A stretch of DNA of 64,000 nt from Verrucomicrobiota bacterium (GCA_043803015.1 JAZDKK010000026.1:20707-84706), one strand, 5' to 3'. Shown: positions 48,505 through 51,285, counted from the stretch's first letter. Numbers and translations are program-made. The notes: generated from the sequence alone by a model not told the origin.

Positions 48505-50070
48505 TCAAGGCTGCCGGCGCGCGCCCTTTTTCCCCGCCGACTTCATGAACAGGTAGCTGTTCAGGGCGTTCAGGTACGCCTTGGCGCTGGCCTCGACGAT
48601 GTCGGTGCTGGCGGCCTTGGCCGCCACGCGGTCACGGCCGAACGCCACCTGCACACTGACCTCTCCTACCGCATCCTCGCCGCGCGTTACGGCTTGGATC
48701 GAATAGTCGAGGAGATCTCCCGGCGTGCCGGTGATGCGGTCGATGGTCTTGAGGGTCGCGTCCACGGGGCCGTCGCCGCACGCGGAATCTTGCTTCACCT
48801 GGTCGCCTTTCTTCAGCCGGACCGTCGCCGTGGGCACCGTGCTTGTGCCGGTCGCAACGTGCAGGTAGTCCAGCGCGTAGACCTGCGGGACCTCGGCGAT
48901 CCCCTCGCGCATGATCGCGATCAGGTCGTCGTCGTAGATCACCTTCTTCTTGTCGGCCAGGACCTTGAACCGGTTGTAGACGTCTTCCTTCTGCTCTTCC
49001 GTCAGTTCAAAGCCCATCTTGGCCAGATGGGTGACCAACGCGTGGCGCCCGGAATGCTTGCCTAGGACCAGCTCCGACCCGGAGATGCCGACGTCCTCCG
49101 GCCGCATGATCTCGTACGTGCGGCGCTCCTTCAGGATGCCGTCCTGGTGGATGCCGGCCTCGTGCGCGAAGGCGTTCGCGCCCACGATGGCCTTGTTCCG
49201 CTGGACCACCATGCCGGTCAGCTGGCTGACCAGCCGGCTCGCGCGGTACAGTTCCTTCGTGTTCACGTTCGTCCAGACGTGGTTGAACGCGTCGCCCCGC
49301 ACTTTCATGCCCATGACCACCTCTTCCAGCGAGCAGTTGCCCGCGCGCTCGCCCAGGCCGTTGATCGTGCACTCCACTCCGCGCGCGCCGTTGCGGACCG
49401 CCGCCAGCGAATTGGCCACGGCCAGCCCCAGGTCGTTGTGGCAGTGGACGTGAATGATCGCGTGCTTGATGTTCGGCACGTGCTCAACCAGGTAGGCGAT
49501 CAGCCGGCCGAACTCGATCGGCACGGCGTAGCCCACCGTGTCGGGGATGTTCACGGTCGCGGCGCCGGCATCAATCACGGCCTCGACCACCTCGGCCAGG
49601 AAATCCGGCTCCGTGCGCGAGGCGTCCTCCGGGCTGAACTGCACGTCCCGGCAGAATTTCCTCGCGTACTTCACGGCCCAGACGGCCTGCTTGACGATCT
49701 CGTGCTTGGCCTTCTTCAGCTTGAACTGCCGGTGGATGGCGGACGTGGCCAGGAAGACGTGGATCCGGCTCCGCTTCCCGGCGGGGGCGACGGCCTCCCC
49801 GGCGCGTTCGATGTCCTTGGCGATGCACCGCGCCAGCCCCGCGATCCGCGGCCCCTTGACCTGCGTCGCGACGGCCTTCACGGCCTCGAAATCGCCGGGC
49901 GAGGCAATGGGGAAACCGGCCTCGATGATGTCCACGTTCAGCCGCGCGAGCTGTCGGGCGACCTCCATTTTCTCGTTCAGGCCCATGCTGGCGCCCGGAC
50001 ACTGCTCGCCGTCGCGCAGTGTCGTGTCGAAGATGATGACCCTGTTCTGCTCGCTTCTCTTTGCGCTCAT
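48505..50070 (-). CDS. leuA: 2-isopropylmalate synthase
   Basis: [66 protein letters not shown] regulatory domain. Confidence 0.96.
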
Positions 50071-50085
50071 GATTTTACCTTCTGT

Positions 50086-50165
50086 GTAGCGGCGGTCTCC
50101 GACCGCCGATCGGCGACCGGCCTGCCCGCCGAAGCCGCCGGGCGAAGGCGGGAGGTCGCCGCTAC
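50086..50165. repeat. GTAG REP doublet with a 32-bp mini-element in the second loop
   Basis: GTAGCGGCGGTCTCCGACCGCCG ... GGCGACCGG [50121-50152] AGGTCGCCGCTAC. Confidence 0.78.
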
Positions 50166-50206
50166 ATCCCTTTTGATATATCCTCTCATTGCCTGTTCAA
50201 ACCAAC

Positions 50207-50234
50207 AAAAAACCCACCGCGGGTTGCGGTGGGT
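50207..50234 (-). terminator. Attenuator terminator (3:4 hairpin) upstream of leuA
   Basis: Minus strand ACCCACCGC-AACCC-GCGGTGGGT-TTTTT. Confidence 0.85.
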
Positions 50235-50259
50235 CCGTACGAAAGCCCCTCGGGCCAAA

Positions 50260-50379
50260 TCAGATGCAACACCTCGCGCCCACCGCCGCGCGGGTGTTGC
50301 CGCTAAGCAAGAGCTCCAGCGTCCACAGGCTCTGATGCTCTGTGCCAACTCCCCGGGCGATGGTCGTCGCAGGTTTCAC
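50260..50379 (-). CDS. Putative leu leader peptide, 39 aa (MKPATTIARGVGTEHQSLWTLELLLSGNTRAAVGARCCI)
   Basis: GTG at 50379, TGA at 50262-50260; five Leu codons within eight codons, immediately 5' of the 1:2 hairpin. Confidence 0.72.
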   Translation of the reverse strand: MKPATTIARGVGTEHQSLWTLELLLSGNTRAAVGARCCI

Positions 50380-50389
50380 GCTGGTAAAG

Positions 50390-50418
50390 AGTATAGGGCA
50401 GCTGCCGCGCGACGTCAA
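50390..50418 (-). promoter_or_regulatory. sigma70 promoter of the leu leader
   Basis: TTGACG-N17-TATACT on the minus strand. Confidence 0.82.
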
Positions 50419-50526
50419 TAGCCCGCCGCCGGGTGCCCCAGCTGCGCCGACGACATGAACACACCTCGCAAGGTGTGTTCATATGGCCGTAGGGGGCTCG
50501 CGCGTACGTGTCTGCACGAAGTCGCT

Positions 50527-51285
50527 TCACCCGTAGCCCGTGCCGGACGACGGCTCGGGCACGAGCCCGCCGAAGCCGCCCGCGCTGTTCCGCCTCAGGC
50601 CCGCCAGAACGAGCGCGCGGTAGAACATCGTGCGGAACCACCACGGACGGCGCACCGTCAACTCCTGCGGCGGCCCGGACGACGCCGTGTCCTTCATCAG
50701 CACGCGGATACCGGCGTCCTGCCACCGGCGGAGGACGTGCGACAGGTCGTCGCCCGGCGAGGAAACAAGGTACTGCACCAGCATCGCCGTGCGCACGCCC
50801 TGCGACAGCAGGAAATTCGCCGAGGGGAAATCCTGCGGCAGGACGACCCAGCGGTTGTCGAAGTGCCGCGGCAAGGGCTTGGCGCCCCCGGCGAGGCGGT
50901 CCGCGTCCAGGAGGAACGCCGGCGGGGCGTCCGCCTCCAGGCGCATCCCGCGAAGCTCGATGGAAAGGCCGATGAGGGCATTCATGATCCCTTCCACATG
51001 CACGAGTTCATCCATGCCCGGGCAGGTGTTGTACAGGGGAACCGGGGCGTAGCCGCGCGCCGCGAGCGCCACGCCGTACCGGACGGAGTCGGCGCCCGGC
51101 AGGTTGACGACGAGGGCAGTCTTCTCCTGCGGCGGAGGCGCCCAGCTCGTGTCGAGGCCCCGCCAGTCGGGCATGGCGCCCGCCTCCCACACGGGCCTCA
51201 GCTTGGCGAACAGGACCGGCTTGGCCCATCGGGACCAGGTCGGGCTGACCGAACTCCACATCGCATACAGCTCTTCACCGATCAT
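50527..51285 (-). CDS. Uncharacterised protein with a C-terminal GLRRNSAGGFGG motif
   Basis: AAGGAG RBS; 21 bp from the ligase stop; conserved-looking motifs W..WAKPVLF, NLPG, PVPLYN, PPAFLLD, FDNR, DFPSA. Confidence 0.8.
   Translation of the reverse strand: MIGEELYAMWSSVSPTWSRWAKPVLFAKLRPVWEAGAMPDWRGLDTSWAPPPQEKTALVVNLPGADSVRYGVALAARGYAPVPLYNTCPGMDELVHVEGIMNALIGLSIELRGMRLEADAPPAFLLDADRLAGGAKPLPRHFDNRWVVLPQDFPSANFLLSQGVRTAMLVQYLVSSPGDDLSHVLRRWQDAGIRVLMKDTASSGPPQELTVRRPWWFRTMFYRALVLAGLRRNSAGGFGGLVPEPSSGTGYG

Follow-up and report, generated by a model that had tools for sequence, protein, structure and literature searches.

A candidate leader-peptide attenuator for leucine control of leuA in Verrucomicrobiota

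Here, we describe a candidate leucine attenuator upstream of leuA in an uncultured Verrucomicrobiota bacterium (GCA_043803015.1). Sequence comparison and RNA folding support a reading, to which we assign a probability of about 0.85, in which the element would work as a leader-peptide transcription attenuator of the ribosome-mediated kind and adjust leuA expression to the level of charged tRNA-Leu. The element occupies positions 50207 to 50418, on the minus strand, of the window, i.e., the whole 64,000-nucleotide stretch of DNA that was analyzed. It precedes the gene for 2-isopropylmalate synthase, leuA (48505 to 50070, minus strand; NF002086, 775.9 bits; TIGR00973, 729 bits), which is monocistronic here, the next gene being convergent. 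The leucine-attenuator interpretation was put forward in an original prediction, and it is supported by the conservation of the parts of the element across five families of relatives, by the retention of the Leu codons, and by covariation of the pairing. Leader-peptide attenuation as such is a textbook mechanism; the novelty lies in the lineage, in the leaderless start, and in the placement of the antiterminator in a loop.

A consensus scan of 49500-51000 detected a single promoter-like site (shuffle expectation 0.1). On the minus strand, this site consists of the −35 hexamer TTGACG (50413 to 50418), a 17-nt spacer and the −10 hexamer TATACT (50390 to 50395), with 10/12 consensus matches. The leader ORF (50260 to 50379, minus strand) starts with GTG 10 nt past the −10 box, so that the 5' UTR would be ∼0 to 4 nt long and would lack a Shine-Dalgarno sequence. 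It comprises 39 sense codons, encodes the peptide MKPATTIARGVGTEHQSLWTLELLLSGNTRAAVGARCCI, and ends with TGA at 50262-50260. Transcription probably starts exactly on the GTG or a few nucleotides ahead of it, and the ORF would then be translated in a leaderless or near-leaderless manner. Leaderless initiation at GTG is weak in some bacteria; the start codon here is GTG and the relatives are all ATG-initiated. Among the relatives described below, TTGAC is kept in 36/36 at a fixed distance to the leader start, and the start codon lies 7 to 10 nt past the −10 box in all 36 loci.

Within the ORF, the regulatory Leu cluster (50305 to 50328, minus strand) consists of CTG (50328-50326), the two codons TGG and ACG, a second CTG (50319-50317), GAG, and the run CTC-TTG-CTT (50313-50305), i.e., 5 Leu inside 8 codons. 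The cluster is followed, 4 nt past the last Leu codon, by a hairpin of −24.2 kcal/mol (50266 to 50300, minus strand) with the arms GCAACACC-CGCGC and GCGCG-A-GGTGTTGC, which has 13 pairs, one bulge and the 8-nt loop GGCGGUGG. This spacing, in which the last Leu codon begins 7 nt ahead of the hairpin base, is invariant in families f1 and f4. The antiterminator strand, or region 2, is GCGGTGGG (50279 to 50286, minus strand; GCGGUGGG in the RNA), of which 7 nt lie in the hairpin loop and one is the first nucleotide of the 3' arm. It is the perfect 8-bp complement of CCCACCGC (50233-50226), the 5' arm of the terminator, and the duplex is worth −18.5 kcal/mol. The stop codon lies 16 nt downstream of the antiterminator strand here and 10 to 20 nt downstream across the order. 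Between the stop codon and the terminator there is a small spacer hairpin, GGCCC-GAG-GGGCU (50244 to 50256, minus strand), and relatives have a small hairpin of other sequence at this position. The intrinsic terminator (50207 to 50236, minus strand; −19.5 kcal/mol) is formed by GGACCCACCGC and GCGGUGGGUUU around the loop AACCC, with 11 pairs in the stem (50236-50210), and ends in a U-tract (T6 in the DNA). Finally, an upstream segment, CCAUCGCC, in codons 6 to 8 of the leader (50356 to 50363, minus strand) is complementary to GGCGGUGG with one G.U pair. The original prediction had placed the promoter, the near-leaderless GTG ORF without Shine-Dalgarno sequence, the clustered Leu codons, the hairpin 4 nt after the last of them and the U-tailed terminator where we find them. 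It had also described the hairpin as a 1:2 stem with an internal strand able to pair with the terminator 5' arm; the 8-bp pairing holds, while the strand proved to be mostly loop and not part of a 1:2 stem.

The arrangement recurs in relatives. We collected the DNA upstream of LeuA orthologues with 66 to 86% identity, which gave 36 distinct loci in five families (f1 to f5) of the same order; the closest of these relatives are uncultured Verrucomicrobiota MAGs, some of them labelled Lentisphaerae or Opitutia. A promoter, a short ORF, a Leu cluster, an antiterminator strand, and a terminator are present upstream of leuA in 36/36 loci, and the counterpart of the leader ORF is in frame in every one of them, has 28 to 39 codons and stops 0 to 9 nt beyond the hairpin. 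A covariance model built from 29 of the 36 loci, R1, finds one match per genome, directly upstream of leuA, in 28 genomes of the order (E 1e-21 to 1e-29). Four genomes have no R1 match; orthologous leuA is missing from two of these (G020 and G024) and divergent in the other two (G031 and G040). At the level of the phylum, R1 matches are limited to the class, save in one genome. In the assembly itself (2.15 Mb scanned, 66% complete), a strict scan yielded 143 terminators, of which one, that of the window leader, is combined with a promoter and a short ORF at the 5' end; the same scan revealed no sister attenuators elsewhere in the assembly. Because the arrangement is a single case in the assembly and recurs upstream of leuA in every relative, it exceeds chance.

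These data also bear on the idea that the element is an independent short unit, i.e., an sRNA or small-protein gene with its own promoter and a constitutive terminator. A strong promoter and a strong terminator 210 nt apart would fit such a unit, as would a weak Rfam match to Hrs13 over the terminator (23.2 bits; E 0.0025). However, this match is far below the gathering score of 52 and rests on the terminator hairpin, and we rejected it together with anti-hemB and other Rfam matches as chance-level. Moreover, the scan of 49500-51000 showed no further promoter-like site in the interval from the terminator to leuA, the element accompanies leuA in 28/28 genomes of the order and is missing where orthologous leuA is missing, and the RNA hairpin accounts for the conserved C-terminal half of the leader peptide. 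We, therefore, regard an independent unit as highly improbable.

Several lines of evidence suggest that the Leu cluster is read as codons. First, 3 or more Leu codons fall inside a stretch of 6 codons in each of the 36 relatives, and the run is spelled differently in different families, i.e., (CTG/CTC/CTA) TTG CTC TCC CTT in f1, CTG CTT CTC GCG TTG in f4 and CTG TTG TTG (TTG) in f3, while single positions vary synonymously among the relatives (CTG/CTC/CTA, TTG/TTA and CTT/TTG). Leu is, accordingly, kept as an amino acid or codon rather than as a nucleotide string. Conservation of the Leu cluster upstream of leuA had been named in the original prediction as a check, as had that of the antiterminator pairing, and both are borne out (see below for the pairing). 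Second, TTG makes up 46/160 (29%) of the leader Leu codons as opposed to 4.3% of the Leu codons in the long ORFs of the genome, and is found in 35/36 leaders; the use of rare codons is a hallmark of attenuator leaders. Third, elsewhere in the class, R1 has weaker matches in front of leuA, long-form leuA (NF002991), and ilvB (TIGR00118), and these class-level leaders share the module GCGGTGGG ... CCCACCG-loop-CGGTGGG-Un. The leaders of leuA contain 14 to 20% Leu and 5% Val (e.g., NLLALRLALL), and those of ilvB 18% Leu and 18% Val (e.g., YLVLVLVLVR and LLVVVLAVVL). The ilvB leaders (L105, L107, L112, L113, L115, L116 and L117) belong to other families of the class and are leaderless and Val/Leu-rich, and Leu-rich leaders precede long-form leuA in L111 and L114. 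The composition of the peptide follows the downstream gene, and this is the strongest argument for codon reading. Altogether, the leader ORF is probably translated.

An alternative is that the element is a non-translational RNA switch, in which hairpin and terminator act as a sensor of a protein, tRNA or small ligand, and that the ORF and its Leu codons are incidental. Nucleotide-level conservation of the hairpin and its flanks extends to synonymous sites, a base-composition calculation gives a chance of ∼40% for an open frame of 39 codons in a genome of 66% G+C, the leuA leaders of Planctomycetota combine a short ORF lacking a Leu run with a conserved hairpin inside it, and Streptomyces provides a precedent of non-classical behavior (PMC1262725). 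The incidental presence of an ORF is, however, difficult to reconcile with start codons that, in 36/36 loci, keep both the reading frame and their spacing to the −10 box, and with stops that always fall just past the hairpin. Likewise, the Leu run persists amid unrelated nucleotides in f3, L053 and L058, with synonymous variation, and the leader composition tracks the gene, i.e., Leu for leuA and Leu plus Val for ilvB. Finally, when 49900-50700 was searched against Rfam with cmscan (E up to 10), no leader family, including Leu_leader (RF00512), and no T-box or riboswitch was detected. We consider a non-translational switch improbable.

The two alternative structures are supported by covariation. 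We used an alignment of 29 f1/f4 sequences for structure statistics, with slid partners and 500 shuffles as controls. For the terminated state, i.e., hairpin plus terminator, 87.7% of the cells are paired and covariation is 0.176 as opposed to ≤0.066 for slid partners; for the hairpin, 87.5% of the cells are paired, with register shifts and compensatory changes. The antiterminator helix is 87.1% paired. None of the 500 shuffles matched the observed values for the terminated state or for the antiterminator. Pairs in the terminator stem covary (GC 22/AU 7 and GC 13/AU 12/CG 2), and one antiterminator pair (CG 18/UA 7/UG 4, with 0 unpaired) follows the matching change in the terminator stem. Importantly, in 24 of the 53 class leaders the antiterminator complementarity reaches 1 to 3 nt into the terminator loop, and these extensions covary (CGG/CCG, TTC/GAA, TTT/AAA and TC/GA), which cannot come from the terminator's own stem. 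RNAalifold on f1 also recovered hairpin and terminator with compensatory changes and register shifts. The covariation reflects few independent events, mostly from f4 versus f1/f3. Because a shuffle test of antiterminator length alone was weak in this G+C-rich sequence (8.2 observed versus 6.0), the case for the antiterminator rests on position, covariation, and loop extension.

Folding of the leader RNA (numbered from the G of GTG, i.e., nt 1 = 50379) is consistent with a switch. The naked leader folds with z = −3.5; in its minimum free energy structure the terminator forms and CCAUCGCC is paired with the antiterminator strand, and the duplex between the N-terminal segment and nt 85-103 is worth −24.8 kcal/mol. 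A CCATCGC motif recurs in f1, f3, and class-level leaders. The RNAalifold consensus fold of f1 did not recover the pairing of CCAUCGCC with region 2 and, for this reason, the role of the N-terminal segment as a second protector is one that we infer. To model a ribosome on the leader, only the RNA 3' of the ribosome was folded, ending at nt 156 prior to region 4; folding with a mask over the footprint only was dropped because pairs unrealistically spanned the ribosome. The 2:3 helix has a probability of 0.00 with RNA free from nt ≤80, which rises to 0.34, 0.96 and 1.00 with RNA free from nt 82, 84 and 86, respectively. When the last Leu codon, CUU (nt 73-75), is in the A site, the ribosome reaches to approximately nt 83-85 and, thus, the model switches at the expected ribosome edge. 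The original prediction had called for alternative structures in this region, and the folding gives them as a clean terminator/antiterminator switch at nt 82-86. In the model, opening of the hairpin requires a stall at the end of the Leu cluster, on its final one or two Leu codons; a stall at the earlier CTG codons would leave it closed. With the hairpin intact, the terminator state is favored by 10 to 11 kcal/mol, and at full-length equilibrium its advantage is about 10 kcal/mol as long as the 5' arm is not masked. Across the 53 leaders, capture of the terminator 5' arm by any upstream strand has, at the expected ribosome edge (d = 12-13), P≥0.41 in all and P>0.6 in nearly all, with this any-strand probability being too noisy in f4 to place the switch.

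We, therefore, suggest the following model. With ample leucine, or without translation, the conserved hairpin would, together with the N-terminal CCAUCGCC, keep GCGGUGGG sequestered. CCCACCGC would then pair with the downstream copy of GCGGUGGG to form the U-tailed terminator, and the polymerase would stop before leuA. A ribosome that continues to the stop codon, 16 nt downstream, would also block GCGGUGGG; in the folding model, the antiterminator strand is just behind the footprint of this ribosome and not beneath it, and CCAUCGCC likely becomes the protector in this situation. By contrast, when charged tRNA-Leu is scarce, the ribosome would stall in the Leu cluster. With CUU, which starts 7 nt before the hairpin, in its A site, the ribosome would occupy the first 4 to 6 nt of the hairpin 5' arm. 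The freed GCGGUGGG would capture CCCACCGC once it is transcribed, the terminator would not form and leuA would be transcribed. The functional outcome predicted from the sequence is leucine-dependent read-through.

The placement of region 2 in a loop also allows a different view of the hairpin in f1, f2, f4 and f5, in which it aids antitermination as a scaffold rather than acting as a protector, with the ribosome loaded through obligate leaderless initiation. The loop-displayed GCGGUGGG and CCCACCGC would form an H-type pseudoknot. A Leu-stalled ribosome would halt short of the hairpin and keep it, giving read-through, while a translating ribosome would unwind the hairpin and cover the loop while the terminator is made, giving termination. 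Consistently, region 2 lies in the loop in 29/29 f1/f4 sequences. The loop size is 8 to 11 nt in f1; in f4 it is 13 nt, and GGCGGGC is unpaired over its full 7 nt, preceded by 5 loop nucleotides and followed by 1. In addition, the last Leu codon is fixed 7 nt before the stem so that most stalls would spare the stem, the stop codon lies 10 to 20 nt past the strand in the order so that a terminating ribosome would cover the 3' arm, and the pseudoknot is sterically plausible. It comes, however, without energy support, as ViennaRNA cannot score pseudoknots. Moreover, f3 and class-level leaders work without such a hairpin, the pseudoknot-free model already switches cleanly at the expected ribosome edge, and a scaffold predicts read-through when there is no ribosome, unless the N-terminal segment intervenes. 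On balance, we find a scaffolding hairpin possible but unlikely, both as an H-type pseudoknot and as a scaffold dependent on leaderless loading. If true, a loop-presented antiterminator would be a variant of attenuation not described for classical systems.

The protector-based attenuator that we favor resembles known systems to different degrees. The enterobacterial leu attenuator (leuL of leuLABCD) combines a leader rich in Leu codons, including rare codons, with protector, antiterminator, and U-tailed terminator structures. The element described here shares the Leu-cluster ORF with rare codons, the alternative structures, and the regulatory logic. It differs by the lack of a match to RF00512 in sequence or structure, by the leaderless or near-leaderless start without a Shine-Dalgarno sequence, by Leu codons that lie just upstream of the hairpin and not within its 5' arm, by the antiterminator strand in the hairpin loop, and by a monocistronic leuA, with ilvB-leuC forming a separate operon without an attenuator. 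The geometry of the enterobacterial leu/ilv attenuators had been claimed for the element in the original prediction; this comparison upholds the same parts and logic, but the loop-placed strand is atypical of a classical 1:2 protector. As in the four-segment model of E. coli trp, the segments are ordered CCAUCGC ... GCGGUGG ... CCACCGC ... GCGGUGG-Un, with the codons ahead of segment 2, and this order is clearest in f3, which has no extra hairpin. Unlike in trp, Leu is sensed, segment 1 is separated from segment 2 by the regulatory codons instead of containing them, and in f1, f2, f4 and f5 an extra local hairpin encloses segment 2.

The leuA leaders of Corynebacterium, Mycobacterium, and Streptomyces are similar in that a Leu run precedes a stand-alone leuA in a G+C-rich genome. 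For instance, the C. diphtheriae leuA leader peptide MNRANLLLLRRGGSQA (PMC5784534) can be compared with an f3 leader ending in ...GRLLLLRRAAVGGEVRT, both written to the stop codon. The near-leaderless start is not unique either: Corynebacterium provides documented examples of leaderless leader peptides, among them the ilvB leader-peptide transcript of C. diphtheriae (PMC5784534). The class-level ilvB leaders with Val/Leu runs before a terminator resemble the Corynebacterium glutamicum ilvBNC attenuator; these leaders are in other genomes, whereas ilvB in the window genome has no leader. The actinobacterial LEU element is described as a pseudoknot whose base stem forms between the Leu-codon run and the leuA Shine-Dalgarno sequence, and often has no clear terminator (PMC1262725); the element here differs by a clear terminator, by the phylum, and by the lack of sequence similarity. 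As summarized in that paper (Seliverstov et al. 2005), attenuator-like leaders of leuA and ilvB in Streptomyces coelicolor behaved in a non-classical manner on mutation. For the present element, we rejected a base stem of the LEU-element kind: between the Leu run and the leuA Shine-Dalgarno sequence, the best pairing in the window is 6 bp, which 59% of shuffles equal, and 1 of the 36 loci (L004) stands out.

A full-text literature search on Verrucomicrobia, Verrucomicrobiota, Planctomycetes and PVC found no description of leader-peptide attenuation, with Lopatovskaya et al. (2010) lying outside its scope. This agrees with the original prediction, which knew of no such attenuator in the lineage. 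The element would, thus, extend classical leader-peptide attenuation to Verrucomicrobiota and the PVC group. To our knowledge, the PVC group is mostly uncultured and almost nothing is known about its gene regulation. The class would hold a coherent attenuator family for leuA, long-form leuA and ilvB, in which one shared antiterminator/terminator module combined with differing codons amounts to a natural experiment on codon-sensing logic. The leaders also imply that leaderless initiation is functional in the lineage and fast enough to couple with transcription. A covariance model could annotate such leaders, currently invisible to gene callers, in MAGs. The gain is one of distribution and annotation, not of principle.

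Leu-run leaders also occur at greater distance. L053 (Phycisphaerales) and L058 (Binataceae), which represent two other phyla, have near-leaderless Leu-run leaders and terminators upstream of leuA, with the peptides …LPRLLLLSTEFCL, written to its stop codon, and …AGLLLSLALT…. These Leu runs suggest that leucine leader peptides are widespread beyond the groups usually cited. Five leuA upstream regions of Planctomycetota (L046, L047, L049, L070 and L071) have a promoter and a short ORF (e.g., MSYATAHAASAQGGFSVRGHTANVVLPG, to the stop codon) with an internal hairpin that covaries between genomes, and with no Leu run and no obvious terminator; they are a different kind of leuA leader. In the window genome, the region upstream of the ilvB-leuC operon on contig C45 contains neither a leader ORF nor a terminator; this region (C45:53203-53450) is AT-rich with repeated GCACAT-like motifs, which suggests that the operon may be regulated by a protein.

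R1 and the relatives gave some further observations. A 29th strong R1 match, L102 in G038 (C149:9228-9363; E 7e-19), is a diverged second copy in which the leader, MMRIHQMEDLYLALRRDTRATAGGGCCVG up to the stop codon, precedes not leuA but a gene for a 195-aa protein; this protein has no match in NCBIfam and, by eye, resembles an HTH regulator with a cupin-like C-terminus. In L119 (G106:C99), a CCCACCG/CGGTGGG stem with a U-tract ends a 5S rRNA gene. This stem is, thus, a generally favored terminator in the class, and R1 matches at E ∼1e-5 may be false positives that reflect the terminator only. In f4 (L016 to L030), a fifth conserved segment, GCCCGC(C), lies just past the terminator U-tract and complements GGCGGGC, the 3' arm of the terminator. 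In read-through transcripts, this segment could engage arm 4 in a new pairing. The fifth segment is missing from f1 and from the window.

The element is flanked by palindromes. Between the stop codon of the upstream gene (50527) and the leader promoter, 50455-50482 is a perfect palindrome, ATGAACACACC-TTGCGA-GGTGTGTTCAT. Because exact or near-exact copies of 28 to 31 nt are present on contigs C16, C9, C31 and C54, this palindrome is a REP-like repeat, possibly serving as a terminator or insulator of the upstream operon; the equivalent place in relatives is occupied by inverted-repeat or heptamer arrays that are unrelated to it. On the other side, the spacer from the terminator to the leuA Shine-Dalgarno sequence contains a G+C-rich palindromic insert (50080-50165; GTAGCGGCGACC ... 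GGAGACCGCCGCTAC) and is thereby lengthened to 136 nt as compared to 51 to 65 nt in most f1 relatives. Pieces of the insert of 19 to 31 nt recur on eight other contigs and once more on C26, and L013, L014 and L036 have other palindromes at the position of the insert.
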